DNA of 62,254 bases, counting the filler, from Candidatus Nanoarchaeia archaeon (GTDB lineage: Archaea > Nanobdellota > Nanobdellia > Woesearchaeales > DATDTY01), in NCBI GenBank assembly GCA_035290625.1. It is 3 parts of 3 records of this genome, joined end to end, with 100 filler letters (N's around TTAATTAATTAA, not from the genome) between each part and the next. Parts side by side here need not be neighbours in the genome. Positions count along the whole stretch, not along the records: positions 39,226 to 62,254 come from DATDTY010000058.1; 2 more parts are not named here. One strand, 5' to 3'. Under the pieces are notes generated by a model that saw only the letters and a program-made list of their open reading frames with translations, was not told the origin of the DNA and did not search any database. Position 1 is the first letter of the stretch; each line of letters opens with the position of its first letter. Both the position numbers and the translations under genes were made by a program. Positions 44,817 through 62,254 of the stretch are shown here, in pieces.

Positions 44817-46250
44817 ATGAAACCAACCAAAAAAGAAGTATTTGAGCAAATCAATAAGAAATGGTATAGGCAAGGCTTTAATTGCACGCCGCTGCTGCTA
44901 GGGCCATGCGGCTCCAGCGGCATGGATCTTAAGCCCACTTTGGGAGATACGATGCGTTCATTCCTTTATGAATTTAAGAATGACTATGGCCTTGCTTGTT
45001 ATTCTTCTGAAGACCTTGATCGGCTTGGAGCTGTCATCCTAGGGAAAATAAGGTCAGAGCGCGATTTTCTTAAGAATGTTCGGAAAGAGTATGAAAGGAC
45101 ATTTAAAACTGCGCTTGGTGAGATTACTCCATCAATACGGTCCCTGTCATCATTTTCAGACAAGGAGCTCATACAACTTCTAGCCAACTCAGTTGCTACC
45201 ATACGCTTGAGTGTCGGGCAGGCCCATATCATAGAGCCTTTTGCACTTACAACTGACCATTTCATCAAGAAGAAGCTTCGCAACTATATCAAAGATGAGA
45301 AAAAACTGAACCTATGCCTTTCAGCCTTATCGCAGCCCATCAAAAAGTCCTTTATCAATGAAAGTGAAGAGGAGCTCTATGCCCTGTCGCTTATCAAAGG
45401 CAAAGACAAACGAGCAAGAGCTATAACTATCTATCTTAAGCGGTTCTTCTGGATCAGGAACAGCTATGCAGGAAGAGTAAAGAGGACTGTTTCCGACATT
45501 GAAAAAGAGCTGGAATCACTGGGGAACTTTCAGCCTCTGGATACTGTGAAAATAAAGAAGGAGAAGAGAGAAATCATCAAAGAGCTTAAGCTTGATACAG
45601 ATTTGATACTCCTTCTCGAAACCTCTGATTTTATGACAGAATGGCAGGATAAGCGGAAGAAGAACATCCTGACCGCAATTGACCCTATGGAAGCGGTTCT
45701 TGAAGAACTCGCCTCCCGGCTTTCTATTGATGTGAGCCTTTTAAGATACTTGTCTGAGTATGAGCTGGATGAGAACCTCCTTACCAACAAGAAGCTCAAA
45801 GCGACTCTGCAGGAGCGAAGGAAAGGCTGTATTTATTTTACTGCCGGAAATGGCTTTATTTTTCTTACCGGAGAAGACTATGCACGCTTTCATAAACAGG
45901 TGGGAGATGCTGACAAACAATTTTCAGAAGCAAAAGACATTCATGGGCTTACTGCATCATCAGGAACTGCTGTTGGGAAGGTCATGATCTGCAAGAGCAT
46001 ACAGGATATCTCTCATTTTGTCAGGGGAAGCGTTCTTGTGGCATCTATGACAAGGCCTGAATACCTTCCTGCGATGAAGAAGGCTGTTGCCATTGTTACT
46101 GATGAAGGAGGGATCACTTCGCATGCAGCTATTATCAGCAGGGAGCTTGGCATACCCTGCATCATTGGAACGAAGAATGCCACAAAAATCCTGAAGGATG
46201 GCATGCTTGTTGAGGTCAAGGCGAATCACGGGCTTGTGAGGATACTATGA
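44817..46250 (+). CDS. PEP-utiliser mobile (phospho-His swivel) domain protein, paralogue 1
   Basis: C-terminal [50 protein letters not shown] before ATG 44817. Confidence 0.9.
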   Translation: MKPTKKEVFEQINKKWYRQGFNCTPLLLGPCGSSGMDLKPTLGDTMRSFLYEFKNDYGLACYSSEDLDRLGAVILGKIRSERDFLKNVRKEYERTFKTALGEITPSIRSLSSFSDKELIQLLANSVATIRLSVGQAHIIEPFALTTDHFIKKKLRNYIKDEKKLNLCLSALSQPIKKSFINESEEELYALSLIKGKDKRARAITIYLKRFFWIRNSYAGRVKRTVSDIEKELESLGNFQPLDTVKIKKEKREIIKELKLDTDLILLLETSDFMTEWQDKRKKNILTAIDPMEAVLEELASRLSIDVSLLRYLSEYELDENLLTNKKLKATLQERRKGCIYFTAGNGFIFLTGEDYARFHKQVGDADKQFSEAKDIHGLTASSGTAVGKVMICKSIQDISHFVRGSVLVASMTRPEYLPAMKKAVAIVTDEGGITSHAAIISRELGIPCIIGTKNATKILKDGMLVEVKANHGLVRIL

Positions 46251-47668
46251 CGTGGACTGTCTACACAAGAGGGGCTATCCCTCTTTATCGATTATCGTGC
46301 GCAATCAAGGCAATTCATGATCTTGCCACAGAACTGAACGGGTCTTATTTTAAGTCTATCCTCTATGCAACTGAAGGTGATTCCTTTTGGTGGGCGTGGG
46401 ATACCAAGGAGATTGAAGGACTGGGAATGCACATCCTAGGGAAAACAAAAACAGAGAAGGGCAGGAAAACACATTTCAGCGCGATGAAGCGTTATTTTGA
46501 TAAGGCGATTACGTCAGCAGAGAGGGTAAGAACCCTTGACCTTGCCAAGCTTGGTGATGAAGACATCATCAAAGAGTACAGTGTGCATTATCATGAATCC
46601 AGCTTTGCTCACACATTAATGGACACTGATGTTGATGCTATCGATGTCCTTCCCGCAGAGATCCTCAAACAAAAGATAAAAGAAGCTCTGCCTAAATCGA
46701 CAAGTGAAAAAGAATTCATTGAAGCCTATACTACCCTATCAACTCCTGCCCACACCTCCTATATCCTTGAGGAGGAGAATGAGCTCTTAAAGGTAATCCT
46801 GAGAAAAACAACTCTTGCCAAGGTTATTGAGAAATACTGGTGGACAAGTCTCGGTTGGGAATGCATGACTCCCAAGTCAAAAAGCGATTTTCTTAAGTTA
46901 CTCCAAGAGCATCGGCGAAGTATAAAAGATCCTGAAAAAAAGCTGAAGGAGAACCAAGTGAATGTTCAGCGAATAAAGAAAGAACGTGATAACCTCCTAA
47001 AAAAATATTCTCTTTCTGAAGACATACAGAACCTTATAGAGCTCTTTGATACCTATGCGCGCTACCATGATCTGAGGAAAGAAATGCAGGTAAAGACAAC
47101 CTATTCTTTCTATCTTTTGCTGCAGGAGGTCGCAAAAAGGACCAAGCAGGATATTGATGATCTGGAATGGTTATGGCATGACGAGGTTTGCGATCTTCTG
47201 CGAACACGCAAATCTGATAAGCAGGAGATCAAAAGAAGAAAGCAGGCGCTTCTTGTGCTCTCTCTTGAAAAAGGAATCCGCACTTATTCCGGAAGGGAAG
47301 CGATACGTGTACGAAGAAAGGAACTTGATGAAACGGTTGCTGATGTTGATGAATTAAAAGGCATGGGGGTTTCACCCGGAATCGTCAAAGCCCGCGTCAA
47401 AGTCTGCAATGGATCAAAAGAAGCAGCTACATTAAAAAAAGGAGAGATTTTAGTCACAGGCATGACCCTGCCTGATTATGTTCCTGCTATGAAGAGGGCA
47501 GCGGCAATTGTCACTGACGAGGGCGGCATCACATGCCATGCAGCCATTATCAGCCGGGAGCTTAAAAAGCCGTGCATTGTCGGCACAAAGATCGCTACAA
47601 AGGTCCTGAGCAATGGAGACTTGGTTGAGGTGGACGCCAATAAAGGCATTGTCAGGAAAATAAAATGA
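46247..47668 (+). CDS. PEP-utiliser mobile domain protein, paralogue 2
   Basis: TDEGGITCHAAIISRELKKPCIVG; ATGA overlap. Confidence 0.9.
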   Translation: MTWTVYTRGAIPLYRLSCAIKAIHDLATELNGSYFKSILYATEGDSFWWAWDTKEIEGLGMHILGKTKTEKGRKTHFSAMKRYFDKAITSAERVRTLDLAKLGDEDIIKEYSVHYHESSFAHTLMDTDVDAIDVLPAEILKQKIKEALPKSTSEKEFIEAYTTLSTPAHTSYILEEENELLKVILRKTTLAKVIEKYWWTSLGWECMTPKSKSDFLKLLQEHRRSIKDPEKKLKENQVNVQRIKKERDNLLKKYSLSEDIQNLIELFDTYARYHDLRKEMQVKTTYSFYLLLQEVAKRTKQDIDDLEWLWHDEVCDLLRTRKSDKQEIKRRKQALLVLSLEKGIRTYSGREAIRVRRKELDETVADVDELKGMGVSPGIVKARVKVCNGSKEAATLKKGEILVTGMTLPDYVPAMKRAAAIVTDEGGITCHAAIISRELKKPCIVGTKIATKVLSNGDLVEVDANKGIVRKIK

Positions 47669-49029
47669 AAAAAACAATTATCCTGGACAGAATAAGCGGC
47701 ATCGATGGGTGCATCTATCTAACTTCTCCTATACCTCAGCTTATCTCCTGGTCGAATAAGCTCTTCAGGCTTCAATTCGGAGATTATGCTATTGGCTTTC
47801 ATGACGAAAGGAATTGCGATGAGTACGTTAGTTTCGAGTATTTTAGGAAACAATCTGAGCTGCTTGCGCAGATGTTCCTGAAGGCAGAGCTTACGTTTCC
47901 TTTTTTCTCCAATGTGCATAAAAACCTCCTAAAAGGGATTTCTCTCCTGGACACGCTTGCCAAACAGAAACTCAAGGGACTTCGCAGTCTACCTGACAGG
48001 GAATTGATTGCTTCGTATACTGTTTTCATGAAGGACTATACCTATTATTACGGTTGGGGAGCCATCACGTTCATCTATGAGCAGACACTTGCAGAAATGC
48101 TTGCCTCAGAGCTCCAGTCCCATGTTAAGAACCCTTCTGAATCTATTATGAGTTATATCCATTCCAAGAATAAGAGGTATGAGAGCTTTATGCTCCGCTA
48201 TGACAAGGCTATCGGCAAGCTTAGCAAGAAAGACGATAAGAAGCTCAGGCATGGCCTGATTGAGAACTTTTACTATATTAAATCCAGCTATTTTGATGCT
48301 CCTGTGCTTGATAACCCTTCTATTGATAAGGATATCAGAGAGTTTACTTCACATAAGAAAAAAGTGGCTGCTTCCAAGGTTGACATCAAACATCTATCAC
48401 AGAGAGAGAAAATAATGCTGAGGATCCTTGCAGCCTCTCTTCCTCTGCGGGATACCAGAAAGCAGCTGAACCTTATCGGAGACTTTATCATGATGCGATT
48501 TCTTGAGGAAGCTCTTAGGAGGAAGGGCATCCTGGATAAGCTTGCTCTCTTCAAAAGGATCTTTTGGCCTGAGTATAAAGAAATCTTTGATAATCCCGGA
48601 AAACTGGAATCAAGGCTGAAAAAGCGAACAGCAGCAACGCTTTACATCAATCCAAAGAGCGAGAAATTCTATCTTGGCTATCTCGCTGTGAAGGAACGCA
48701 GTTCTGGCGCAGGGGAATTGAAAGGCCTGGTTGCGTCAAAAGGAAGGGTTACTGGAAGTGTTCGGGTGATCCATGGCTCTCTGGATTTTCATCTCTTTCA
48801 GAAGGGAGAGATACTGGTTACTGACGCAACACGGCCTGATTTTGTTCCGATCATGAAGAGGGCAAAGGCAATCCTCACCCAGGAAGGTGGGCTTACTTCT
48901 CATACAGCGATCGTGAGCAGGGAGCTTCATATACCTTGTATTGTCGGGATACCTGGAGTAACTGTTTTGCTGAAAGATGGGGATAGGGTTGAAGTAGACG
49001 CCAATAAAGGAGTGGTGAGGAAAGTATGA
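47665..49029 (+). CDS. PEP-utiliser mobile domain protein, paralogue 3
   Basis: TQEGGLTSHTAIVSRELHIPCIVG; ATGA overlap. Confidence 0.9.
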   Translation: MKKTIILDRISGIDGCIYLTSPIPQLISWSNKLFRLQFGDYAIGFHDERNCDEYVSFEYFRKQSELLAQMFLKAELTFPFFSNVHKNLLKGISLLDTLAKQKLKGLRSLPDRELIASYTVFMKDYTYYYGWGAITFIYEQTLAEMLASELQSHVKNPSESIMSYIHSKNKRYESFMLRYDKAIGKLSKKDDKKLRHGLIENFYYIKSSYFDAPVLDNPSIDKDIREFTSHKKKVAASKVDIKHLSQREKIMLRILAASLPLRDTRKQLNLIGDFIMMRFLEEALRRKGILDKLALFKRIFWPEYKEIFDNPGKLESRLKKRTAATLYINPKSEKFYLGYLAVKERSSGAGELKGLVASKGRVTGSVRVIHGSLDFHLFQKGEILVTDATRPDFVPIMKRAKAILTQEGGLTSHTAIVSRELHIPCIVGIPGVTVLLKDGDRVEVDANKGVVRKV

Positions 49030-50609
49030 ACTGGAAGGACGTCCCGGAAATCCGCGTATCTGATGTTTTCAACGAACGCATTCTTAAGAACCGAAACTGG
49101 TACGAGAAAAGCTGGGGCGGAGTCCTCCATCCTCTCTTTATTGTGGGATATGGTGTTGTCCCCCTGCTAAATCAAAGGGTTAAGGATAGCTTTCCCATCG
49201 GAATCTGTTTTGTCCATAATGATAAGATGCGGTGGTTGTGGGACACCCGAGATATTGAGAGAATACGGGTTCGTATTTTGAACCTTCTTTCCGATAATCC
49301 CTCTTCTGTTTATGGTTGGGTTGATGCATGGAAGCAAGATTGGAAGGAATTCATTGCAGTGTGCTCTGCTCTTGAAAAAACTTCATTGCAAGAACTGACT
49401 GATGCAGAGCTCTCTGCAGCCTATGAGCAGCTTGTTGATGCATATATTCAAGAGAGCAGCCTTCCCTATCTGACAGACTCTTTCCTTGCTTCCGGAAAAA
49501 CAGACTGGCTTGTAGATATGATCACAGAGGAAATACAGGATAAGGTTTCTAAAGAAAATATTGCTTCAACTCTGGCTTGCCTTACAGCTCCTGTGCATAC
49601 CTCCTTTTCCCAGGATGAGCGCATAAGCCTCTTATCATTGGCAGAAAAATTAATTCGTAAAAAAGATACCAGGGAGGTCCTTAACACATGCAACTCCGAA
49701 GCCGTTCTTCGTTCTGTTAAGAAATACCCTTCCTTGCTCAAACTCCTCAGTGATCATGTTTCGCATTTCTATTGGGTTGAAAACAGTTACTATGAAGCCC
49801 CTTTCCTTGACGAATCCTATTTCCTCAAGACTATCTGCGAACTTTCCAAGACCTCTGATATCCTTTCTTCCTATCGTAAAGAGGCAGGGCTCTGCTTGGA
49901 GAACAAAAAGCGCAAGCAGGCCTTATACAAAAAATTAAAAATATCTGAAAGGCTCAGGTCCATCATAACCCTGTCAGAAGATTTTTCTAAATGGCAGGAT
50001 ACAAGAAAATCATGCGTGTTCCGTGTCAATCACTTTATCTTTAGGATACTGGATGAGATGGCAAGCCGCCTGAAGCTGCCTCCTGCGGAACTCTATTATA
50101 CCATCCCATCCGAACTTCAATCTGTTTTTCTGGATAGGAAGTATGACCGAAAGAAACTGCAGCTGCGGAGATCAGAAGGCTGCGCGTTTGCCTTTACAGC
50201 TAAGGGCTGGAGGCTGTTTGAGGGAAAAGAATACCGGGGAATCGACCAGGATATCTTCTTTGGAAACCCCGGTCAAAGAAAAGTCCTCAAAGGAGTTCCT
50301 GCATCTCCCGGAAGCGCCAAAGGAACCGTACGTGTTGTGTTTAAGCCCCATGAACTCAGGAACGTGAAAAAAGGAGAGATTATTGTCACCAACAACACTA
50401 CTCCTGATTTTGTTCCTGCGATGAGGAGGGCTGCTGCAGTGATTACCGAGCAGGGCGGCATCACCTCCCATGCAGCGGTTGTTTCAAGAGAGCTGAAAAT
50501 CCCATGCATTATCGGGATCAAGCAGGTTACGTATATATTGGAGGATGGGGATCTGGTTGAGGTGGATGCAAGCCATGGTGTTGTAAAAATACTGAAGAAA
50601 TCCCGATAA
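49026..50609 (+). CDS. PEP-utiliser mobile domain protein, paralogue 4
   Basis: TEQGGITSHAAVVSRELKIPCIIG; ATGA overlap. Confidence 0.9.
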   Translation: MNWKDVPEIRVSDVFNERILKNRNWYEKSWGGVLHPLFIVGYGVVPLLNQRVKDSFPIGICFVHNDKMRWLWDTRDIERIRVRILNLLSDNPSSVYGWVDAWKQDWKEFIAVCSALEKTSLQELTDAELSAAYEQLVDAYIQESSLPYLTDSFLASGKTDWLVDMITEEIQDKVSKENIASTLACLTAPVHTSFSQDERISLLSLAEKLIRKKDTREVLNTCNSEAVLRSVKKYPSLLKLLSDHVSHFYWVENSYYEAPFLDESYFLKTICELSKTSDILSSYRKEAGLCLENKKRKQALYKKLKISERLRSIITLSEDFSKWQDTRKSCVFRVNHFIFRILDEMASRLKLPPAELYYTIPSELQSVFLDRKYDRKKLQLRRSEGCAFAFTAKGWRLFEGKEYRGIDQDIFFGNPGQRKVLKGVPASPGSAKGTVRVVFKPHELRNVKKGEIIVTNNTTPDFVPAMRRAAAVITEQGGITSHAAVVSRELKIPCIIGIKQVTYILEDGDLVEVDASHGVVKILKKSR

Positions 50610-50610
50610 C

Positions 50611-51905
50611 ATGAAAAAAAACGAACTTAAAAAGAAGGTGCTGCGATTTCGCTGGGAATGGTGGGCGGAGAGGCCCTTTGGAGCATTTATCTTGTCGTTG
50701 TTTAAAGAGGGCCAAACCCGGTCGTATATGCAAAAAATTGGAGTTGATGCTCAATGGCCTGCAATGCTTTTCCAGAATGGCTGTTGGTATAAGAGCGAAG
50801 AAGTGTGGGATTTGTTCGAAAATCAGTTGACAGGATACCTATCCGACGGTGGATCTGTTTTTCAGATTACAAGAGGCTGCGAGTTATATGGGGAACATTC
50901 CAAAAAACAAATTCAGAAACTTATCAAGGCTGATATGACTCCGCGAAAAAAGCTCCAAGAATTACACAATGTCCTTGCACTGGATATTGCTTTTGTGTGG
51001 GTGACTCATGGGCTCGAGCATTTGTATAAAAAAAGGCTATACAATGAAATTCCTAAATATTTCAGCGGAGACGTTGAAAAGTTTATTGGTGATGCCAGCA
51101 TTCCAGCAAAAAAGAATGCCCATTACTACCTTGAGAAATCCTTGCGCAGCAAACAAAGCCTTAAAAGCGTGCAAAGACGTTTTGGCTGGATAAAAGCGAG
51201 GGACGGATTTTCTGATCCATACACTATCCAGGAACTCGCAGCTGAAAGAAAGCGTTTAATCGTTGCGGATCCTGCGCATATCCGAAGAATAAAGGTTCCA
51301 GAGGAACTTAAGCCTTTAGTAGATATTACAAAGGAACTCGTTTATTTGCGGACATTGCGCACCGATCTCCTCTACGAGTTGCTATTCATAAGCAGGCCTA
51401 TTCTTAAAGAAATCGCGAATGTGTACGGAATCCCCTTTAAGGAGCTTAGAGATTACTCAATCCACGATTTAATCTCAGCCAAGCCGAGGAAGTATCCAAA
51501 GCAGGTTACAGCAATCAGCTTTGGTAAGAATTTCTTTTTTTTTGATGCGCCTATCCTTAAGGGTGATATAGAAAGTATCAAAGACCTGAACCAGCTTTCT
51601 GGAACAATCGCTAATCGGGGCATTGCTATAGGAAAGGCAAAAATTGTAAAGACTGCTTATGAAATCAGCAAGGTGAATCGTGGGGATATCCTATTAGCCC
51701 CAACTACTGCTCCTTCTTACATTATTGGGATGAAGAAGGCTGCGGCATTTGTAACAGATGAAGGGGGATTACCTCTCATGCAGCGATTATCGCTCGAGAA
51801 ACGGGGAAACCGTGCATCATCGGAACCAAGCACGCAACACATATCTTTAAGGACGGCGACCTTATCGAAGTAGACGCCAATAAGGGCATAGTGAGGAGAC
51901 TCTAA
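50611..51905 (+). pseudogene. PEP-utiliser mobile domain protein, paralogue 5, frameshifted just before the catalytic His
   Basis: G5 run at 51763-51767; adding one base restores [47 protein letters not shown] ending at 51905. Confidence 0.85.
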
Positions 51906-52094
51906 CTGGGGCAGTATCCTGCCGTATTTTCTTATATATGAAATGTACTTCATATATTTCTGAAATATATGAACTTTAAGTAAAATTCTAGGAACCGTTA
52001 TGTGGGGGAAGGCCCCTTGGGTATAAAATATACCTATCAATAGGATTAAAATATACCATAAACTTTAAAAATAGAAGGTAATTTCTATACCAAG

Positions 52095-52526
52095 ATGACC
52101 ACGATCGCAGACCATAAGCGCAAGATTCGGGAACATGTTGAGGAGATCAATGATGCAATTGATTATGGGATAGAAAAACGCCCAATCACTCTGGGTTTTC
52201 ATGCGTCTGCCTGCGGCGTAGAGCTCCTTGAGCTTTTCCTTCATAAGTCAGACCTTATCTCTACAGGGAAGGTTGTCAAGCACAGCTGGTTCAAGAGGCC
52301 CCGGCAAGATCAGAAGATTGACCCCCTCATAGAAAGAAAGCTGCCTGTTCATTTTGCAGGAAAGGAGGATATCTATAACCTTCTTTATTCTGTAGAGGAA
52401 AACCGAGATGCCTTAGTCTATGGGAAGTGCACAAAGAGCCAGATAGAGTCTGTTATCACTGCCTTCTTTAGCCTCAAAAAGGAGATTGAGAAGAAACTTC
52501 ATGAATTAGGTGAGAGCCTTGATTAA
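52095..52526 (+). CDS. Putative HEPN-like protein paired with a nucleotidyltransferase
   Basis: All-helical 143 aa with E.NRDALVYG motif; overlaps the downstream MNT gene. Confidence 0.55.
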   Translation: MTTIADHKRKIREHVEEINDAIDYGIEKRPITLGFHASACGVELLELFLHKSDLISTGKVVKHSWFKRPRQDQKIDPLIERKLPVHFAGKEDIYNLLYSVEENRDALVYGKCTKSQIESVITAFFSLKKEIEKKLHELGESLD

Positions 52527-53112
52527 GAAAACCGAGCTCATAGCTGTTGCATTTTCCTTCCTAAGCTTTGTTTTCCGGGAGCCTTACCAAAAAGGTATCC
52601 GCAGGATTATCCTCTATGGATCTGTGGCAAGGAATGAGTTTGATGAGGGAAGCGATATTGATCTCTTTTTTGACTGCGGCAATGAGGCTGAAACAAAAAA
52701 GCTTGTCAGCAGGGCTCTCGCCAAGTTCTATGCTTCCCAAGAGTGGGGCAAATGGAAGTTAAAGGGAATCACCAACGAGATCCAGCCCATGGTTGGCTCA
52801 TTGGAGGAATGGGACCTGAAGCAAAGCGCTGAGAAGGAAGGCGTCCAGCTCTACTCTTCTACTGCTGCGCCGCACCTTATGAAATACTACTTATTTTCCT
52901 TTTCTGCTCTTACTCCTCTTTCCAGAAGAAACCGGGTTATCCGCAGGCTTTTTGGGAGAAAAGGATATAACCAAGCCGGGATTGTGGAGCGCTACGGAGG
53001 AAGCAAGATTACTCCAAGATCTTTTCTTATCCCCCAAGATGGAGTAAAGGAGGCAACAACAGTACTATCCAAGGAGAAGGCAGAATTCAGCTTCAAAGAG
53101 GTGTGGATGTGA
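52510..53112 (+). CDS. Nucleotidyltransferase (MNT) with extra C-terminal domain
   Basis: IILYGSVARNEFDEGSDIDLFFD. Confidence 0.85.
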   Translation: MRALIKKTELIAVAFSFLSFVFREPYQKGIRRIILYGSVARNEFDEGSDIDLFFDCGNEAETKKLVSRALAKFYASQEWGKWKLKGITNEIQPMVGSLEEWDLKQSAEKEGVQLYSSTAAPHLMKYYLFSFSALTPLSRRNRVIRRLFGRKGYNQAGIVERYGGSKITPRSFLIPQDGVKEATTVLSKEKAEFSFKEVWM

Positions 53113-53142
53113 GGCAGAGAAAGGAGTGGTGCGGAAACTAAA

Positions 53143-54570
53143 ATGATTGATCCAAAAAGAAGGCTTTTCAAATGGGGGCCGATTGACGGCAAAATCCTGT
53201 ATACCGACTCCTTTATGGATCACATGGTGTTGTTCCAGAAGGAATTTCCGTACAGCTGGCCGGATACTCTTGATTTCATATCGAACGATAAAATCCTGAT
53301 TATCCTGGATTATGAAGATCTGTACTCTGTAGGAGAAAGGATGTTTCGTGAGCTTATCCTTGAAGAAAAGAAGAAGAAAGAACTCTACCATGAGTGGATT
53401 CATTATTGCAGCAGAATCGAGAAGCTCCTGAAGAGGACTACCCCCGGGTTTCTGAAGTGCCTTGCAGATGAAGGGCTAACCAAAGAACTTCAGGCTTTCA
53501 ACGCCATCTACGATAAATTCTGGTCATACGGATTTGTCCCAGAGATTGCAAACTGGGGAGGGGAGAGGATCCTGCATAACAAAATCAAGGAAGCGTATCC
53601 GGATGCCTTTAACGAGATTCTGGAGATACTGTCAACCCCTGAAGAGCTCTCCTTCTACCAAAGAGAAGAGCTGGACTTGTTGAGGATAAAGCTCAAGAAG
53701 AACAAATCAAAATACATCAAGGGCCACCAGCAGAGTTATTTCTGGATAAAAAACAGCTATGGAGGTGTTCTGGTAACGCCCGAAAAGGATTTCAGGAAGC
53801 GGCTGGACGAAGTATCTTCTGCGGAAGCAAAGAAGAAGGTATCTGAGATACTCCATTATACACAATCGGTTAAAAGAAAGAAGCAGGACGCGATCAGGAA
53901 GCAGCATATCGCAAAAGATGTCCAGACTATCGGATCAAACCTCAGCTTTACGATATGGTGGCAGGATCTCAGGAAAAAATACATCTTTATGGCGCTCCAC
54001 ATCATAACCCTCTTCGCTTTCGAGGTTTGCCGGAGAAACAAGGTTCCTGAAAGAGATGTCCTGTTCTATAATCCCGGAGAGCTGTTCAATCTGGCAGCGC
54101 ATCATGAAAAGGCACAACACATGGCCCAAAGGAAGAGAGGCTATGCCTCTTATTATTCTGAAAAGAAGAATGCTGTAACCTATCTCTATGGGGAGAAGGC
54201 GCTTGCATTTATGAAACCTTATACTTCTCTAAAAATCGATACAAGCATCAAGGAATTCTCGGGCCATGGCGTAAGCAAAGGAAAAGCAAGAGGCCATGTA
54301 TGCATACTGACAGGAGCACGGCATTTTGGCAAGCTTAGGGAGGGGGATGTCCTTGTCGCATCAATGACAAGCCCAGAATTCGTCGTTGCGATGAGGAAAG
54401 CAGCTGCTATTGTAACAGACGAAGGGGGCTATACAAGCCATGCAGCAATCGTAAGCAGGGAGATGAAGAAGCCGTGCATTGTAGGGACAAGGATAGCGAC
54501 AAGGGTTTTGAAGGATGGGGATTATGTTGAGGTGGATGCTGATAAGGGGATTGTGAGGAAAGTACGATGA
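53143..54570 (+). CDS. PEP-utiliser mobile domain protein, paralogue 6
   Basis: TDEGGYTSHAAIVSREMKKPCIVG. Confidence 0.9.
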   Translation: MIDPKRRLFKWGPIDGKILYTDSFMDHMVLFQKEFPYSWPDTLDFISNDKILIILDYEDLYSVGERMFRELILEEKKKKELYHEWIHYCSRIEKLLKRTTPGFLKCLADEGLTKELQAFNAIYDKFWSYGFVPEIANWGGERILHNKIKEAYPDAFNEILEILSTPEELSFYQREELDLLRIKLKKNKSKYIKGHQQSYFWIKNSYGGVLVTPEKDFRKRLDEVSSAEAKKKVSEILHYTQSVKRKKQDAIRKQHIAKDVQTIGSNLSFTIWWQDLRKKYIFMALHIITLFAFEVCRRNKVPERDVLFYNPGELFNLAAHHEKAQHMAQRKRGYASYYSEKKNAVTYLYGEKALAFMKPYTSLKIDTSIKEFSGHGVSKGKARGHVCILTGARHFGKLREGDVLVASMTSPEFVVAMRKAAAIVTDEGGYTSHAAIVSREMKKPCIVGTRIATRVLKDGDYVEVDADKGIVRKVR

Positions 54571-55568
54571 ATAATGACTGGTATGAGGGAGCTGCAAGAG
54601 AACTTTCTTTCTTCACAACGACAGAGATTATCAAAGCTTACACTTCTATGCAGAAGAAATATGGCATTGCTTTCTATAGTGTCTTGTTCCACAGCAAGAA
54701 AGGAGTTCTTCGGATGATTCGGAAGAAGTCGGAATTAAATGCAATAATTGATTTTATTGAACATCAATCTGAAGAATTCGTTATTGGACAGTTTAAGAAG
54801 GCGCTCTCCTTATACGAGAAACTGAAGAAGGCACTTCAAAAAAAGGCACTGACTCAAGGAAAGTTTCAGAAAGTCATCTCTTTATGTGAAGAACTCTGGG
54901 CCTACAATATGTTCTGCATCTATTTCACCTACGCTACAGAGAGAAAAAGAGTCAAAGAAATATCTGGCAGAAACTATGCCCTTGTTGCAAAAGTAAGAAA
55001 TGAAATCTGTAATGTGTTGATATTGGAGCGCTTCTTACGGCATCAAAAGATTGACTTATCTGAACTGAATGGAAGAGAGATCCAACTCTATCTCGACAAG
55101 AAAGAACTTCCTGATGAGAAGGAGTTAAAGGAACGAAGAGAAGAATATCTTATATTCATGCAGGATCTAAAGGCAACAAGGATACCTAGATCAAAGATAC
55201 AGTCTACCCTTATACACTATATTGAGGATGCTGATTATACCCATCTACGAGAACTGAAAGGCATAGTGGCATTCAAGGGAAACGTTTCCGGGCCTGCCAG
55301 GATAATACTGAGAAAAAAGGATCTTCATTTGTTGAAGAAGGGGGAAATCCTTGTTACGTTAAGCACAAGTCCTGATTTTGTTCCCTACCTCCTAAAATCA
55401 GTAGGCATCGTCACAGATTACGGAGGGGTTGTGAGCCATGCAGCTATCATCGCCAGAGAGGAAAAAATACCCTGTATTGTTGGAACTAAGATAGCTACTA
55501 AGGTCTTTAAGAATGGCGACTTCGTTGAGGTGGATGCAAATAAAGGAGTGGTGAGGAAGATTAAATGA
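54567..55568 (+). CDS. PEP-utiliser mobile domain protein, paralogue 7 (short N-domain)
   Basis: [28 protein letters not shown] overlap. Confidence 0.9.
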   Translation: MNNDWYEGAARELSFFTTTEIIKAYTSMQKKYGIAFYSVLFHSKKGVLRMIRKKSELNAIIDFIEHQSEEFVIGQFKKALSLYEKLKKALQKKALTQGKFQKVISLCEELWAYNMFCIYFTYATERKRVKEISGRNYALVAKVRNEICNVLILERFLRHQKIDLSELNGREIQLYLDKKELPDEKELKERREEYLIFMQDLKATRIPRSKIQSTLIHYIEDADYTHLRELKGIVAFKGNVSGPARIILRKKDLHLLKKGEILVTLSTSPDFVPYLLKSVGIVTDYGGVVSHAAIIAREEKIPCIVGTKIATKVFKNGDFVEVDANKGVVRKIK

Positions 55569-55616
55569 GGCTCAGGCATTGGGCTACGCCGCAGATGGAA
55601 TGGACATTAAAGTAAT

Positions 55617-56981
55617 CTATAATCCATCTCTCCCAAATTTGTTGCCTAACTCTTCTAATCTCCTATTAACCTTACTGGAATAAAACATTGCTGCAATCTC
55701 TTCGGCGATTATTAATCCGCCTAAGCTTAACCGAATTACATCTTCATCTTTTTCTAATAGTCCTTTATTTTTTAAATCTTCAATTTTATCTCCAAGCGGA
55801 ATATCTATCGGAACACCAAATCTGTCAAAAAATAATTTTTTATCTATCCCTCCTGATGGTTTATTTATGCCACTTGTTTTAATTCCAAAAACAGCAAATC
55901 TTATCATTTGCTCTTCTGCTGTCAATCGCTCTCCAGATTCAACAGCTAAACTCCCTGATTCAATTCTTGATATATAATCTTCAAGACTTTTTCTCATATT
56001 TTCTCCAAATCTTCCAACATTCCTATAAGTAAAACCATTAAACCAAGAATATGCAGAAGCTCCCAATCCAATTAACTCAGAACCAAAATGCCATTTTTGT
56101 TCTTGCTGTCTAAATTCCTTTTGCGGCAATGCAAATTGATTTGGGGAAATTTGGATGTATCCTGTATCAATTAAAAATTCTAATGCTCGAATATACATTT
56201 CCATTGCCTCTTCTTTTGATGGAAAGAGAGACTCATTTCTTTTGCTAAGAGTTGTTCTTCTTTCTTTTCTTAAATGATATAAAGTAACATAATCCGGTTT
56301 TAAATCTCCGATTATACATAGAGTTTCATCCCATAATCCTAGTGTTTGTTTTGGTAATCGGTACATTAAATCGATGTTAATTCTTTCAAAACCATGTTTC
56401 CTTGCCCTATGATAAGAATCAATGGCCTCTTGTCCTGTATGTCCTCTGTGTCTTGCAGCCAATACTTCATCGTGAAAATCTTGAACGCCTATACTAAGAC
56501 GATTTATACCACCTTGAATCATTGTTAATAGTATTGCATCATTTAAGGTGTCTGGCGTTGATTCTGAGGTAATCTCTGCATCTTCATTAAATAATAATTT
56601 ATGTCGAATATAACCGAGTAGTTGAGAAAACTGTCTTGTGCTTAGTCGGGTTGGGGTTCCGCCTCCAAAGAACAAACTGCTTACTGTTCTATCTCCTAAA
56701 TCACTTCTTTCTAAATATATACCTAATTCTTTCTGAACGGCATTAACATATCTATCTCGTTCATTCTCACTTAATCGTTTCAGTTTGTAGAAAGAGCAAA
56801 AGTCACAAATATAAGGGCAATCGGGTATATGGACATACAATCCAATAGATGGTTTTCTCAGGACATCATTTGCTTCAACAGTTGGTCTGATAATTGGTGG
56901 GGGATATTCTACAACGAAACTATATTTTTCAACACCCCTAAAAGGTGCTACTTTGGTTATTATGGCTCTATCTATTGTCAT
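55617..56981 (-). CDS. HemN/HemW-like radical SAM protein
   Basis: LYVHIPDCPYICDFC (CxxxCxxC), FGGGTPT, RLSIGVQDF, INIDLMY.LP.QT, GLGASA. Confidence 0.9.
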   Translation of the reverse strand: MTIDRAIITKVAPFRGVEKYSFVVEYPPPIIRPTVEANDVLRKPSIGLYVHIPDCPYICDFCSFYKLKRLSENERDRYVNAVQKELGIYLERSDLGDRTVSSLFFGGGTPTRLSTRQFSQLLGYIRHKLLFNEDAEITSESTPDTLNDAILLTMIQGGINRLSIGVQDFHDEVLAARHRGHTGQEAIDSYHRARKHGFERINIDLMYRLPKQTLGLWDETLCIIGDLKPDYVTLYHLRKERRTTLSKRNESLFPSKEEAMEMYIRALEFLIDTGYIQISPNQFALPQKEFRQQEQKWHFGSELIGLGASAYSWFNGFTYRNVGRFGENMRKSLEDYISRIESGSLAVESGERLTAEEQMIRFAVFGIKTSGINKPSGGIDKKLFFDRFGVPIDIPLGDKIEDLKNKGLLEKDEDVIRLSLGGLIIAEEIAAMFYSSKVNRRLEELGNKFGRDGL

Positions 56982-57077
56982 AACAACTCTGTAGTAGTCA
57001 TTTCTATATAAGATTATGTTGTAAATCTATTTACTACAACAGTAAAAATTAAATAGTAGTTATTAATACTGATACTC

Positions 57078-57821
57078 ATGAAAGAGAAAGCACTCAGAAA
57101 ATTTGGATTAAGTGATAGAGAAATAAGAGTTTATATAGTTTTACTAGAATTGGGCGAAGCTCTGGCTTCCAAAATAGCTCAAAAGACAGATACTCCAAGA
57201 ACACTCGTTTATGATATCTTAGAAAAGTTATTAGATAAGGGTGTTGTAAGTTATGTGATTAAATCCAATAAAAAATATTTCTCTGCTCTTGAACCAAGCA
57301 GTTTGATAGAAGTTTTGAGAAACAAAGAATGGGAAAAAGAAAAACTCGTTCAGGAAGCTCTACCAGAATTGCTATCTCTAAAACATAAAGATTTAGATAA
57401 AAAAACAAAAGTTGAAATTTATGAGGGAAAAGAAGGAGTTAAAACTTTATTTAATGATGTATTAAAAGTTGGAAAAGAATTTTTATGTTTTGGTTCTACT
57501 GGAATTTCCCCGGATATACTCCCTTATGAACTATCAAGATTTCATAAAGAGCGGATAAAAAGAAAGATACATTGGAAAGTAATATATAACAATGATGAAT
57601 TAGGAAGAAAAAGAGGCATGGAGGCGAGTAAGTGGAAATATTCTCAAGTAAAATATATGGAAAAAACCAGCCCTACTACGACCTATTGCTATGGGAATAA
57701 AGTTGCTATTGTTTTATGGATAAAAGAAAGGTTGTTAGCTGTCATGATTGAAGATGAGATTATCACAAATTCATTTAAAGAATTTTTTGAAGTCTTATGG
57801 AAAAATGCAAAATCAATTTAG
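57078..57821 (+). CDS. TrmB-family transcriptional regulator
   Basis: FGLSDREIRVYIVLLELG..ASKIAQKT..PRTLVYDILEKL..KG.V; VEIYEGKEG. Confidence 0.9.
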   Translation: MKEKALRKFGLSDREIRVYIVLLELGEALASKIAQKTDTPRTLVYDILEKLLDKGVVSYVIKSNKKYFSALEPSSLIEVLRNKEWEKEKLVQEALPELLSLKHKDLDKKTKVEIYEGKEGVKTLFNDVLKVGKEFLCFGSTGISPDILPYELSRFHKERIKRKIHWKVIYNNDELGRKRGMEASKWKYSQVKYMEKTSPTTTYCYGNKVAIVLWIKERLLAVMIEDEIITNSFKEFFEVLWKNAKSI

Positions 57822-57869
57822 CGAGAACTCAACTATATTTAACTTATATCTGCAAAGAGCGGCAAGATC

Positions 57870-59276
57870 ATGACAGCACCCAAAAAAGTCCGCTGGCAGA
57901 AATTCTTTTCCAGAGGCCAGCATCCTGTGCTTATTAGTGATCTGGCCTGGCGCACGCTGCAGCTCCAGCCTGAGGTCCTTGGTTTGTCGGCGATGCATTA
58001 CTATAAGCGCGACGTGCGATCAACCTATTTTGATTCTGGCGAATACCAGCATTTGCTTGGCGTTCTGAGAAATCAGCTAGCGCAAAAGCCGCATCAGGTG
58101 TTGGCGATCCTGAAACAGTTTGAGAGAGATGCAGCTTCTCTTATTCGATTGGCTCGCAGCTTTGCCAGGTATGACTGGCCAAAGGCATCTGACTCCGCCT
58201 TGCGCTCTCGCTTAACGTCCTTTCTCAAGCGCTTTGTTCCTCTTTTTACTTCGGTTTATTACCCTCTTTGGGTGGAGGAGGCAGGCACAGATCTCTTGCA
58301 TGGGCTTCTGAAAAGCAAGCCACAGCCAGAGCGGGAACGATTTTTCTGGCAGGCAACCCGGCCTGACAGGCTGACCACCAGAGATCGCTATCGTCTTAGC
58401 ATTTTACAGGCTAGCCAGCGTCTGACAAGAGATAAAACTCTAAACAAAAAGAGAATCGCTGGCGAGGCAAGAAGCATTGCAAAGCAGTTTGATTATCTTG
58501 CGTCCTATATGCTGCGGATTGAACGTTATAGTGTTGCGGATATCGAGGCAGAGCTGCGCCATGTTGCTGGGCAGAACCCGGCTAGCCAGCTGCAAGCCAG
58601 ACGGGAGGCAGAAGCAAAGCAGACAGCTGCAATGGGCCAATTATTGCAGAATCAAAGCCAGAAGGTTCAGGATGTTGCACGGGTATTAGCGTACGATGTC
58701 TGGCTCCGGGACGAGCGCGTTACGTGGTATGCACGAATTTTTACTTTCTTAGAGCCGATGGTTAAAGAAGCAGCTAGGCGGGTGGGCTTAACGTACTATG
58801 AATTTGTTCAGCAGACGCTTGATGAGATCGCTTCAGGCAATACCCCTCCTAAGCGAAAGCTTCAGGAGAGGCTTCAAGGATATTCATACCTGGTTATTAA
58901 TGATACCGTAAAAATATCTACATTCCGTCATACCAGGACTGCTGAAAGCACTAAAACTGAGGTGCATGGACAGACGGCTTTTCCCGGTAGAGTTAAAGGA
59001 ATCGTACGATTAGGCAATGCTTATATTTTCCATCAGATACTGCCTGGAGAGGTTATTGTTTCCGGCATGACAACTCCAGAGGCAACCGCTTATGTTAAAA
59101 AAGCAGCAGCGATTGTTACTGATGAGGGTGGCATTACCTGCCATGCGGCGATTGTGGCTCGTGAGTTTAAGATTCCAACTATCATTGGAACAAAAATAGC
59201 GACAAAGGTTTTGAAGGATGGGGATTATGTTGAGGTGGATGCAAATAAAGGCATTGTCAGGAAACTGGGCAGATAA
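57870..59276 (+). CDS. PEP-utiliser mobile domain protein, paralogue 8
   Basis: TDEGGITCHAAIVAREFKIPTIIG. Confidence 0.9.
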   Translation: MTAPKKVRWQKFFSRGQHPVLISDLAWRTLQLQPEVLGLSAMHYYKRDVRSTYFDSGEYQHLLGVLRNQLAQKPHQVLAILKQFERDAASLIRLARSFARYDWPKASDSALRSRLTSFLKRFVPLFTSVYYPLWVEEAGTDLLHGLLKSKPQPERERFFWQATRPDRLTTRDRYRLSILQASQRLTRDKTLNKKRIAGEARSIAKQFDYLASYMLRIERYSVADIEAELRHVAGQNPASQLQARREAEAKQTAAMGQLLQNQSQKVQDVARVLAYDVWLRDERVTWYARIFTFLEPMVKEAARRVGLTYYEFVQQTLDEIASGNTPPKRKLQERLQGYSYLVINDTVKISTFRHTRTAESTKTEVHGQTAFPGRVKGIVRLGNAYIFHQILPGEVIVSGMTTPEATAYVKKAAAIVTDEGGITCHAAIVAREFKIPTIIGTKIATKVLKDGDYVEVDANKGIVRKLGR

Positions 59277-59285
59277 TCTTTGCTC

Positions 59286-59666
59286 TCACTTCAGTGGATG
59301 CAGGCGCAGCTCCTTTATGCGGTCGAAATCTTTGATATTGAGTGTTGCTAAAGGGCATTGATTAACAATAGCCGTTGCTGCGATAAAAATGTCGCGTATA
59401 CCTATCAGCCTTCCTGAGGATTTCAGCTGTTTGAAGACCTCTGCAGCTTTTCTGGCGCAGTCTTCGGACAGGCTAAGAATCTCTGTGCGGGAAGCGAACT
59501 GATCAATGGCATCGAGGTTTTTCTCCCTTAAATATAATTCAAAGATGCTGATGGAGGTGATGCACATCACCTTATCCTGGCAGGTATCAAGGAAGGCAGC
59601 TCCTTTTTTAGTCCCTTTCAGTATCTCAATGGCAATATCAGAATCTATGCATACCTTTTGTTCCAT
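59286..59666 (-). CDS. vapC: VapC/PIN-domain toxin
   Basis: CIDSD, SIFEL, RDIFIAATA, LATLN.KDF. Confidence 0.9.
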   Translation of the reverse strand: MEQKVCIDSDIAIEILKGTKKGAAFLDTCQDKVMCITSISIFELYLREKNLDAIDQFASRTEILSLSEDCARKAAEVFKQLKSSGRLIGIRDIFIAATAIVNQCPLATLNIKDFDRIKELRLHPLK

Positions 59667-59875
59667 TTGGCATACTCCTTTCTCAGACTTTTCCTAGAGC
59701 TTTCGTACTCTGCGTCTGTCCTTTCCAGCCTTCCTAAGCATGCCCTCAAGCTGCTTCCAGTCTTAGAACTCTTTCTCTCCATAAGCGCCCGAATGGCCTC
59801 GCTGAAGCTCTTATCTTCCTTCATCTCCTTCAATTCTTCATAGACTTTATTTGCGATCATGATCGTTTTGGCCAT
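59645..59875 (-). CDS. vapB: VapB-type antitoxin (archaeal RHH-like)
   Basis: MAKTIMIANKVYEELKEMK..KSFSEAIRAL; overlaps vapC start. Confidence 0.85.
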   Translation of the reverse strand: MAKTIMIANKVYEELKEMKEDKSFSEAIRALMERKSSKTGSSLRACLGRLERTDAEYESSRKSLRKEYAKWNKRYA

Positions 59876-60008
59876 AGTATACATATATATATACATATAT
59901 ATAAAAATGTTTCGGTCGCAGGCTGATTGGGTATATTTGAGGACTCGCCGCTCATGAATAGTATCCCAATAAAGCTTTTTATATGGCTCATGATTAGGGA
60001 GGAATATC

Positions 60009-61448
60009 ATGCCATCTTTTAACGTCAAGGAACTCAAAAAGATCGACTGGAAACTCATGGCGAACCGGAGGGAGGCGCTTCTGTTCAGGTCTATCACTGA
60101 CAATGCCTATGCTCAATTCGAAACTTTGACAGGGATCCCCTGGAGAGCCAACTCTGTCCTCTGGTTCAGTGATGGGGATATGATCTTTAGCGAGGCTGAA
60201 GTTGAAAAGCTGCGCTCCGTCTTTGTGAAAGGAGGGATAACTCTTCTTTCTAGCTTTCGCGACAAGCTGATTCGCGCTGTCCAGGCATTTGATGACTTCA
60301 GCCATAGCCTTGAAGGGATTGATTACAGCAGAAAAACGAAAGCTGAGCTTCTTAGCCTTACAGAAACGTATTTCACGATGGCCCTTTCCAGCCATGCATT
60401 CCTATTTCCTGTTTTTGTTTCTGATGGCGTAATCTCAAGGCTGATCCTTGATCTGCTGCCTGGGTCGGACGATGAAAAGCAATCCAGGCTTTCAGTCTTA
60501 GTATATCCTGAAAAAGAAAACATCCATGTACAGGAAGAACTGGATTTTTATCGGATTGTTGGAGCCAAGGGAAATCGAGACCGCCTTATTGCATCCCATC
60601 TTCAGAAGTACGCCTGGATAGGAGCACGGTGGTACTTTTTTGAGAACTTCTGGAGAACGGAAGATGTCTTGGGGCGGGTACAAAGTGGTTGCCACAAAGA
60701 CCCTCGGAAGGAGATCGAGGCTCTGAACATGCTTAGGAGGCAGATCCTTACCTCTGCCAAAGACTTGGAGAAAAGACTGGAAATTGCTCCTGGATCTTTG
60801 CTCTCAAAGTATATCTGTCTTGCCAGAGAATTTGCTTATTTGCGCACCTGGAGGACTGATGTGGTGTACCGAGCAGGTTACTTGGCAAGAGGCTTGTTCT
60901 ATGAAATTTCTAAACGAGCTGGATTAAAGAAAGAGGATGTAATCTATCTTACGTTCTCAGAAGCTGTAGACACGGCAAAGACGGGACGAATGCCGGTATC
61001 CCTGCAAACCATTCATAAGCGGAAAAAAGCCTTTGCTACAATGCTCTTCAATGGGGACTATATCGTTCTTGTTGATGAGAAGCAGATAGAGGCGTTGCGG
61101 AGCTTGGTCAAGCAAGTACCTGTATCAGATTCTGTCAAGGGCAGCGTTGCGTTTTCAGGAAAGGCAAGCGGGAAAGTAAAAATCGTCTTTACAACGGAAG
61201 ACCTCAAGCATTTCAGGTTAGGTGATATCTTGATTGCTGTCATGACCTTTCCGCACTTCATTTCTGCTATGGAAAAAGCAGCAGCGATTGTTACTGATGA
61301 GGGTGGCATTACCTGCCATGCGACGATTGTGGCTCGTGAGTTTAAGATTCCAACTATCATTGGAACAAAGATAGCGACAAAAGTTTTTAAGGACGGCGAT
61401 CTTGTTGAGGTTGATGCTGATAAAGGGGTTGCCCGGATACTGAGATAA
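60009..61448 (+). CDS. PEP-utiliser mobile domain protein, paralogue 9
   Basis: TDEGGITCHATIVAREFKIPTIIG. Confidence 0.9.
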   Translation: MPSFNVKELKKIDWKLMANRREALLFRSITDNAYAQFETLTGIPWRANSVLWFSDGDMIFSEAEVEKLRSVFVKGGITLLSSFRDKLIRAVQAFDDFSHSLEGIDYSRKTKAELLSLTETYFTMALSSHAFLFPVFVSDGVISRLILDLLPGSDDEKQSRLSVLVYPEKENIHVQEELDFYRIVGAKGNRDRLIASHLQKYAWIGARWYFFENFWRTEDVLGRVQSGCHKDPRKEIEALNMLRRQILTSAKDLEKRLEIAPGSLLSKYICLAREFAYLRTWRTDVVYRAGYLARGLFYEISKRAGLKKEDVIYLTFSEAVDTAKTGRMPVSLQTIHKRKKAFATMLFNGDYIVLVDEKQIEALRSLVKQVPVSDSVKGSVAFSGKASGKVKIVFTTEDLKHFRLGDILIAVMTFPHFISAMEKAAAIVTDEGGITCHATIVAREFKIPTIIGTKIATKVFKDGDLVEVDADKGVARILR

Positions 61449-61495: not shown

Positions 61496-62035
61496 ATGAA
61501 CATATTCCCCTTGCTTACAAGCACGAATATCAGGATACTCAAGTTAATAGACAAAGAGCAGCTTCACATACGGGATATTGCAGATAATCTGGGGATCTCT
61601 CCGGGAACTGTTCATAAGCTTGCCGCTTTCTTAAAAAAAACCGGATTAGCATCTGAAACAAAGCAGAAGAACAGGATACTCCTCAGCTTAAACAAACACC
61701 ATCCCATACTAAAAGAGATAAAACGCATAATCAATTTCAATGATATCCTCAATGCGCCTGCGTACCGCAAGCTGAGGAAATTCGGGAAAATCGGGATTTA
61801 CGGAAGTTTTGCAAGCGGCACGAATGACAAGGACAGCGATCTGGATATCTGGATTCAGACAAGTCGGAAAGAGCTTGAGTTACGGCCCCTTATACGGGAA
61901 TTGGAAAAGCGATTAAACACGAGAGTAAATCCTGTGTTCCTGACGAGCCAAAAGATAATCTCCTTAAAGAAGGACGACCCTGAGTTTTATACAAGATTAT
62001 TGTTAACATCAATCGGTGACTTATTTGATCAATGA
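61496..62035 (+). CDS. wHTH-nucleotidyltransferase (MNT) fusion
   Basis: HIRDIADNLGISPGTVH HTH; IYGSFASG....DSDLDIWI. Confidence 0.88.
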   Translation: MNIFPLLTSTNIRILKLIDKEQLHIRDIADNLGISPGTVHKLAAFLKKTGLASETKQKNRILLSLNKHHPILKEIKRIINFNDILNAPAYRKLRKFGKIGIYGSFASGTNDKDSDLDIWIQTSRKELELRPLIRELEKRLNTRVNPVFLTSQKIISLKKDDPEFYTRLLLTSIGDLFDQ

Positions 62036-62254
62036 GAAAGAATGCTTTCAGAAAGGCCTCTTAAGAAAGACCTCCCCTCAATTGGACCTGGCTAAGAAGG
62101 ATTTGAAACAGGCAGAGTTCTTCCTTAAAGAAGCAGAGGAATTATTAGATCTGAAAAAGAAGCACATAGCAGCATTATCCTTATATAATGCGTTCTTCCA
62201 TGCAGCAAGGTCATTATTGTTTAAGGACGGAATCAAAGAAAGAAGCCATTATTG
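62025..62254 (+). CDS. HEPN-domain protein, truncated by window end (not in ORF track)
   Basis: TTG start after GGTGA; INEKECFQKGLLRK...AEFFLKEAEE...LYNAFFHAARSLLFKDGIKERSH. Confidence 0.85.
   Translation, partial: MINEKECFQKGLLRKTSPQLDLAKKDLKQAEFFLKEAEELLDLKKKHIAALSLYNAFFHAARSLLFKDGIKERSHY

Follow-up and report, generated by a model that had tools for sequence, protein, structure and literature searches.

The described systems closest in gene content to the locus reported here are the two-component dikinases HpeHI, CreHI, and PpsAB (PMC12167813) and the fused rifampin phosphotransferase (RPH; PMC4844700), in which the alpha part joins an RPH-type substrate domain to a C-terminal His swivel; in the two-component enzymes the beta subunit is a separate, nearby ATP-grasp gene, and the His motif is conserved. 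We analyzed a window (the whole stretch of 62,254 nucleotides [nt], filler included) from the genome of a groundwater Candidatus Nanoarchaeia archaeon, a short-read metagenome-assembled genome (MAG) of 84 contigs, one of which (G000:C58, window 39226-62254) supplies the array DNA of the window. A Pfam search of the window proteins places the His domain, PF00391, at the C termini of nine same-strand paralogues, p1 to p9, which have the same alpha arrangement, conserved motif, and separate beta gene. The array departs from the described enzymes in that one beta gene accompanies at least 12 alpha-type genes, whereas the ratio is 1:1 in HpeHI, CreHI, and PpsAB, and in that Thr mostly stands two residues before the His, where HpeH and RPH have Met (both points from PMC12167813). 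Its N-terminal substrate domains (N-domains) are 18 to 28% alike and its scores fall far below RPH cut-offs, and RPH carries ATP-grasp, RIF-binding (rifampin-binding), and swivel domains in one chain, unlike p1 to p9. We consider it likely that this array is shaped by the host's homologous recombination, acting at the half of the His domain that is conserved, through conversion patches, tail swaps, insertion and deletion of whole units, and anchored capture of toxin-antitoxin (TA)-like operons.

Two long tracts are shared between paralogues. The sequence of p8 at 59098-59212 matches p9 at 61273-61387 in 112/115 nt, and p8 at 59196-59242 matches p6 at 54493-54539 in 46/47 nt; shorter identities join p8 at 59244-59264 to p2 at 47639-47659 (21/21 nt) and p3 to p7 (an identical 20-mer at 49003 and 55539). 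These matches, first listed in an earlier note on this DNA, all check, as does its remark that the identity includes synonymous sites: for these tracts, chosen post hoc, synonymous identity is 33/35 inside versus 9/22 outside (p8/p9) and 14/14 versus 14/43 (p8/p6). For the 66 pairs formed by 12 of this genome's His domains (p5 and a C18 domain that lacks the motif being left out), the longest exact run is 50 nt, compared with mean maxima of 18.6 and 19.8 under two synonymous-codon nulls (family-usage codon resampling and column-wise codon permutation, 200 replicates each), and is reached in 0/200 replicates of either. The two long tracts far exceed these codon-resampling nulls, and the p2/p8 (21-nt) and p3/p7 (20-nt) matches are weak alone because exact runs of at least 20 nt occur in 327 of 30,468 cross-source pairs (∼1%). 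Runs of at least 30 nt occur in 8 of 907 same-source pairs versus 7 of 30,468 cross-source pairs (251 units); 6 of 40 multi-unit sources have one, and the His domains of genomes G026 and G036 exceed their nulls. Cross-source runs of 74 and 78 nt were rejected as paralogue exchange, being orthologous units of close relatives. The same alpha genes are present in loci L133, L135, and L144, from records titled uncultured Methanosarcinales archaeon, and L133 holds the longest conversion tract found (83 + 26 + 29 nt exact).

The direction of the p8/p9 transfer can be read from subfamily residues. Orthologues of p9 have F427 (23/23), L435 (23/23), K447 (22/23), and C449 (23/23), and p9 itself has I427, T435, I447, and T449, all inside the 115-nt tract; the four orthologues of p8 likewise carry I427, T435, and I447, and 5' of the tract p8 and p9 each match their own subfamily. 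It was therefore p9 that was overwritten, by p8 or a p8-like donor, and p9, not p8, is the recipient. The 3' end of p8 had been described as a mosaic, which fails for the 115-nt tract and can hold only for the part after 59212. The same loss of subfamily residues is present in the divergent p9 alleles P0043 and P0045.

Strain-level database variants also change at the 3' end (truncated or unrelated entries P0035, P0042, P0067, P0068, and P0073 to P0075 and the p5 cluster are left out of the tally). Of eight full-length p8 variants, four have the tail of p9; a p6 fragment (P0062) has that of p8; and variants of p1 (P0087), p4 (P0078 and P0080), p7, and p9 have tails that are foreign to that gene in this genome. 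In total, 18/45 variants differ after the His, with distinct substitutions at 32/338 positions after it versus 76/3,340 before it, although these are not independent events. Against the separately assembled contig L060, 6 of 10 differences fall at 55325-55541, in the p7 His domain, and six p7 sites are N in L061. Three differences in the p7 tail toggle between a p8-like state (in the window, a 23-nt exact match to p8) and the L060 state, and the L060 allele of this tail is 29/33 identical to an orphan tail at 53111-53146. We note that polymorphism also clusters within N-domains, with four changes in 13 nt between p4 and L060 (window 50090-50102) and an 8-residue patch in four p8 variants (p8 residues 256-271), which suggests patch recombination among alleles outside the His domain too.

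Related arrays differ at the same part of the gene. Loci L137 and L138 come from two Woesearchaeota species with ∼82% identity upstream, and L138 holds one whole alpha unit more: L137 tracks the upstream orthologue to the V-D-A codons and then enters the tail of the next unit, and beyond this joint the two are identical at 1,642/1,650 nt (99.5%). This block was shared recently and has the tail as its left edge, and a de Bruijn mis-join at L137 is unlikely because no 21-nt exact match precedes the joint (in contigs, not reads). Within the block one His core differs at 15/94 nt. Similarly, 17 of the 24 differences between L077 and L078 (8,390 nt) lie within 82 nt of one His core, and the donor of this patch is in neither locus. 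L072 and L079 have the same beta, alpha, and phosphatase-like genes and differ in their order and post-tail inserts. Alpha genes repeatedly have phosphatase-type genes (LMWPc, His_Phos_1, HAD) and TrmB regulators as neighbors (L025, L041, L055, L024, and L142). At least six His-swivel domains are present in 63 of 387 genomes of the order (∼1 in 6), in a hand count that scored up to 14 per genome and left out 14 unpublished genomes.

The array and 139 loci, scanned together (1.34 Mb with 292 full domains), contain six orphan tails, that is, His-domain 3' ends standing apart from a gene, in five sources, and four of the six start 0 to 5 nt after the last stop codon of a TA-like pair. In L072 the order is alpha gene, PIN-like/UPF0175 pair, tail, MNT/HEPN pair, and second tail, and its two tails agree at 71/71 nt, of which ∼30 nt lie beyond the stop codon. 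Tails that are 89/103 identical flank an RHH/RelE-like pair (toxin matches below cut-off) in L063/L064. In L089 a tail directly follows a tail, with no cargo, and in L085 a tail follows a short insert. The best profile match in shuffled loci has an E value of 0.42; the window's own orphan tail, a short one, has a good score with the protein matrix alone (23.3, compared with a true-tail median of 27.1). Seven more profile matches beyond the called domains (L071, L088, L092, L094, L119, L122, and L134) were judged to be the ends of complete divergent domains and are not counted, and position-specific scoring matrix matches of 14 to 17 (L054, L063/L064:7182, L075/L132, L114, and L134) are near background and were excluded. 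TA-like operons also occur with a bare tail, without a full unit of cargo, N-domain, and His domain. In viral contigs, the best 80 of 158 matches are all confined to the C-terminal part.

The second half of the His domain is near-constant in protein and is thus the only stretch with 65 to 75% DNA identity among the paralogues, at which RadA-type homologous recombination may act; RadA and a second Rad51-family gene are present in the genome. We propose three outcomes. Conversion between paralogues or alleles would give the patches of 30 to 140 nt that are observed; crossovers would swap tails and delete or insert units of tail, cargo, and N-domain, as seen between L137 and L138 and suggested here by the strain variants; and foreign operons, mainly TA-like pairs, would be captured with one end in the His tail. 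In such a capture an illegitimate joint at the operon's last stop would leave an orphan or duplicated tail, a structure found in three organisms, and the route may be homology-facilitated illegitimate recombination (HFIR) or loss of the N-terminal part. In transformable bacteria the RecA-dependent anchor of HFIR has a minimum of ∼25 to 35 bp (PMC6382021). Locally, VapBC and the p9 N-domain may have entered the p8 His domain and duplicated the 115-nt tract, so that p9 would have inherited p8-type sequence together with the resident tail. A chimera with a swapped tail still has a complete His domain, and its tail still overlaps the start of the following gene, which is presumably why swaps are tolerated.

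Several observations weigh against recombination anchored in the tail. No tract of 30 nt is present in 34 of the 40 multi-unit sources, G007 and G008 show no excess over their nulls, and G039 shows one only in 20-nt-run counts. Within the 115-nt tract F445 and T449 fit neither the p8 nor the p9 subfamily, so that a third donor is possible. Among other genomes (10 clusters), only 1/15 variants has a swapped tail (P0115, from G026, the tail being foreign), and in 109 cross-genome pairs with similar N-domains each of five His-domain segments retains an excess of identity (+0.15, +0.26, +0.14, +0.10, and +0.05 toward the 3' end). The tail-swap variants are known from protein sequences. Moreover, the Logan contigs of sequencing run X1, possibly the source sample, include no piece in the contig table for 59165-59236, which joins the tract and the p8 tail, and at 61323 X1 has G against A in the window; the simplified graph could therefore itself yield p8 genes with the p9 tail and p6 genes with the p8 tail, and some tail-swap proteins of these two kinds could be assembly artefacts. 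Because the excess His identity persists and falls to +0.05 at the 3' end, exchange is best described as occasional and strongest in the last ∼18 codons: His domains mostly travel with their own N-domains, and the last ∼18 codons are largely decoupled. A generic, freely exchanged His handle, as first envisaged, is thus not what we find. The 3' end of the His domain as a recombination anchor is nonetheless supported by the swapped-tail variants, orphan tails, bracketed TA-like operons, and L137/L138 indel; the proposal that units of cargo, N-domain, and His domain are gained or swapped survives for gain or loss of genes and TA cargo, although bare tails show that the unit is not always of this form.

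The alternative that survives best, though we think it improbable, is plain ectopic gene conversion among tandem paralogues followed by decay. On this reading the patches come from copy-paste repair, the tail gives new DNA no privileged way in, and orphan tails are what is left of alpha genes lost by deletion, cut back to the TA stop and kept for the next start overlap. Conversion and decay would account for tracts that are internal patches with divergent sequence on both sides, for His domains that mostly stay with their N-domains, for the overlap of 89/187 unit stops with a possible start, for the L089 orphan tail without cargo, and for the decaying p5. They account less well for the same tail on both sides of cargo in L072 and L063, where paralogue deletion needs a later conversion, for the near-identical L137/L138 block that starts in the tail, and for variants with tails foreign to the genome.

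Site-specific recombination of an integron-like type, with the tail serving a trans-acting recombinase as its att-like site, is very hard to reconcile with the data. Four orphan tails do begin at the cargo stop codon, three tyrosine-recombinase (PF00589) matches lie elsewhere in the genome (C33, C48, and C10), and the TA-rich cargo is reminiscent of superintegrons. However, there is no PF00589 match on C58 or C14 (the search did not extend to serine recombinases or transposases), no conserved DNA site in the tail (synonymous codon sharing among 237 units is at the pooled expectation), and no tail hairpin (z of 0.07/-0.12 versus shuffles in 50 sampled units; the core segment has a fold z of about -1 with a crude shuffle). 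Tract ends and breakpoints scatter from His -17 to +40 codons. With no adjacent recombinase, site, or hairpin, and with scattered breakpoints, we favor homologous recombination with probable homology-facilitated capture over an integron, and the description of the array as integrase-free holds in that no tyrosine recombinase lies beside it on C58 or C14. A diversity-generating retroelement was set aside by reasoning, since the conserved, not the variable, region is copied and the differences are not A-specific (reverse transcriptase was not searched for).

Mis-assembly, which the earlier note had offered as grounds for refutation, finds little room. L060 is identical to window 49870-62254 at 12,375/12,385 positions, with the same gene order and tracts and the same three mismatches in the 115-nt tract; X1 contigs, with a flank depth of ∼17.5, break at 54539/54510, 59127, 59213, and 61302/61273, the edges of shared runs, and both p8 and p9 enter the tract in X1. 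The tracts are therefore genuine shared sequence. That tracts and tail swaps are collapsed repeats or co-assembled strains accordingly has very little to recommend it: the draft nature of the MAG, the chimeric paths that the X1 graph allows, the G or A at 61323, and the N sites in L061 would fit, but the loss of p9 subfamily residues recurs in the divergent alleles P0043 and P0045, and patches with 15 to 17 substitutions (L077/L078 and L137/L138) are impossible by repeat collapse. Short-read assemblies of such arrays can nevertheless give chimeric genes. X1 depth dips to 13.2 over the p5 N-domain and to 9.4 to 14 over 59213-61302, compared with ∼17.5, and ∼95% alleles of VapB and the p9 5' region are among the matches listed for X6, X10, and X15; these are hints only. 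Two X1 signals were not used: a G>A change at 50541, which agrees with P0078 (a variant of p4) but may derive from the contig of another organism, and an equally ambiguous joint at 46174-50538.

A broader proposal is speculative, and we hold it as somewhat doubtful: DPANN archaea (and bacteria of the candidate phyla radiation [CPR]) may have in His tails a common platform for attachment without an integrase, such that any tail-bearing DNA may enter any array by host recombination, and substrate modules for a single common ATP-grasp kinase, along with TA operons that have acquired a tail, would circulate between species as cassettes. If so, the array would correspond in function to a superintegron, with a catalytic domain as the recombination site, and it would renew a repertoire of kinases that scavenge or detoxify small molecules. 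A tail that acts as a landing pad would account for the building and renewal of large enzyme repertoires in reduced symbiont genomes and for their integrase-free collection of TA modules; it predicts that a single population holds both empty and filled alleles and that the same beta charges many alphas.

The predicted model of p9, the only paralogue folded (pLDDT 90.9), matches RPH (Foldseek hit 5FBT, E value of 2.7e-15, TMq 0.60) and aligns with 5HV1 residues 323-867 over 416 residues (VIA Z 19.6; root mean square deviation, 5.0). In predicted fold, p9 is RPH without its ATP-grasp domain, and Pfam searching finds no ATP-grasp domain in p1 to p9. The T/S-x-x-G-G-x-x-x-H motif is in frame in 8/9 window paralogues (out of frame in p5), and 62% of 237 units, p8 and p9 among them, have Thr two positions ahead of the His. 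An [RQH]-[DT]-x-R-[KTV] motif, located without residue alignment to the second-transfer motif of RPH (Arg666-Glu667-x-x-Lys670), lies ∼155 residues before the His in 8/9, and scores against NF041857 are 44 to 83 bits (cut-off, 999). One stand-alone PPDK_N gene is present in each of G000 (this genome), G007, G026, G036, and G039, in the last four beside 12 to 27 His-domain matches; ATP-grasp is fused to three units in G008 and to a single unit in G000:C30. The array thus has the fold and gene layout of a multiplied two-component dikinase, with many alpha subunits that probably share one ATP-grasp beta. One beta charging all alphas would thereby keep the tails interchangeable, and the alpha subunits may, as a guess by analogy, scavenge or detoxify small molecules.

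Other layouts of these domains occur. An 821-amino-acid (aa) frame at G000:C30:4274-6739 (L057) has substrate, His, and then ATP-grasp domains, the RPH order reversed, as does a similar 678-aa frame in G009:C2. In-frame alpha polyproteins include those of L033 (G007:C7; 2,815 aa, five His domains), L050 (G008:C32; 1,653 aa, ATP-grasp plus three), L039 (G039:C6; 1,004 aa, two His domains), L127 (∼2,930 aa), and G308 (3,768 aa). L079:1766-2092 is a stand-alone 108-aa His-swivel gene followed by a 369-aa gene and then ATP-grasp, a three-part version, and a PPDK_N-like match lies inside a 6,471-aa open frame at G007:C1:29728-30606.

The features of the array are collected in Table 1; same-order relatives carry the source label Ca. 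Woesearchaeota. The N-domains, once held to be almost unalignable, are remote homologues that align at 18 to 28% identity over 110 to 390 aa (best E value, 7e-14). As reported before, cargo begins close behind paralogue stops, at 190, 49, 10, and 48 nt from those of p5, p7, p8, and p9, respectively. One G is missing from the p5 run at 51763-51767, which puts the catalytic His out of frame; the shifted end is present in all four cluster members, so that the frameshift looks fixed rather than phase variable, and the X1 contig has no gap there. The radical SAM and TrmB genes are foreign by composition, with a GC content at third codon positions (GC3) of 0.19 in both, compared with a genome 2.5th percentile of 0.285. 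A foreign origin of p8 on the same grounds was rejected: its N-domain has a GC content of 0.50, yet GC3 and codon score are in the genome range.

TABLE 1 Features of the dikinase array (window coordinates unless a locus is named)
Feature	Position	Strand	Remark
p1 alpha subunit (substrate domain + His-swivel), 477 aa	44817..46250	+	PF00391 at C terminus; tail of variant P0087 absent from this genome
p2 alpha subunit, 473 aa	46247..47668	+	Residues 240-469 match RPH 5FBS/5HV1
21-nt match of p2 to p8	47639-47659	+	Within p2
p3 alpha subunit, 454 aa	47665..49029	+	20-mer at 49003 common with p7
p4 alpha subunit, 527 aa	49026..50609	+	Other tails in two database variants (P0078, P0080)
p5 alpha subunit, frameshifted	50611..51905	+	G run 51763-51767, before catalytic His
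TA-like pair: 143-aa open reading frame (ORF) + nucleotidyltransferase (MNT-like)	52095..53112	+	ORF without Pfam match; putative partner
Orphan His-domain 3' tail, 11 codons + stop	53111..53146	+	Begins at MNT stop, overlaps p6 start codon
p6 alpha subunit, 475 aa	53143..54570	+	Fragment P0062 ends in p8 tail
47-nt tract common to p6 and p8	54493..54539	+	46/47; exact run 36 nt
p7 short alpha subunit, 333 aa	54567..55568	+	His domain polymorphic; 20-mer at 55539
HemN-like radical SAM cargo gene	55617..56981	-	GC3 0.19
TrmB-family regulator	57078..57821	+	GC3 0.19
p8 alpha subunit, 468 aa	57870..59276	+	p9 tail in 4/8 full-length database variants
115-nt tract, p8 copy	59098..59212	+	His -16 to +21 codons; common with p9
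VapBC pair	59286..59875	-	PIN toxin 59286-59666; antitoxin 59645-59875 (PF02697)
p9 alpha subunit, 479 aa	60009..61448	+	Predicted RPH RIF-binding + swivel fold; tract recipient
115-nt tract, p9 copy	61273..61387	+	
HTH-MNT + HEPN	61496..62254	+	HTH-MNT 61496-62035; HEPN from 62016 on
Stand-alone ATP-grasp (PPDK_N, PF01326-only) gene, 294 aa	L060:12566-13450 = G000:C14		Starts 181 nt past window end; start overlaps HEPN stop

Downstream of the array, L060:15736-17346 codes for a 536-aa fusion of MtrA-like, thymidylate-synthase-like, and DUF4346 domains. Another contig in the window codes for a 1,991-aa RHS/YD-like protein (10256-16231), the C-terminal region of which is Hint-like by eye, and an adjoining 835-aa surface protein (6118-8625); the N-terminal DNA blocks of the two are 73 to 85% identical. 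A 384-aa ORF holds three tandem 138-nt repeats (window 32430-32868).

Our literature search, which did not take in subscription journals or supplements, found no paper on these arrays or their recombination, and the main text of PMC8421398 does not mention the His domain. In mode of growth, the array resembles the type VI secretion system (T6SS) effector-immunity arrays of Vibrio cholerae and the orphan modules of Rhs and contact-dependent inhibition (CDI) systems, which (PMC5361080) grow without integrases at a conserved coding anchor, combine homologous swaps with proposed HFIR, and have orphan 3' remnants and scattered breakpoints. In those systems the anchor is 5' and the variable part 3' (PMC5361080), whereas in this array the catalytic C-terminal domain serves as anchor and the N-terminal part varies; the genes are dikinase subunits, the cargo is TA-like pairs, and the host is an archaeon. 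The analogy with polymorphic toxins drawn in the earlier note therefore extends to recombination geometry only. Both have orphan remnants of gene ends and exchange modules at an anchor of conserved coding sequence, but the array genes do not have a conserved N-terminal delivery part with a variable C-terminal toxin and an immunity gene, and we see no toxin-immunity pairing for them. Short, discontinuous tracts with no site specificity are also features of short-patch gene conversion in Sulfolobus (PMC4471258), although this process and HFIR are known from laboratory transformation on single genes and the array from sequence alone. Chromosomal integrons, as generally understood and as summarized in PMC5361080, share the same-strand array, the repeated element at cassette ends, and the TA-rich cargo; here, unlike in integrons, the repeat is protein coding, and there is no adjacent integrase, hairpin, or conserved DNA site. 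The processes themselves are known; their use of a catalytic C-terminal domain, in a previously undescribed dikinase array of an archaeon in which coding tails bracket TA-like operons, did not come up in our literature search.

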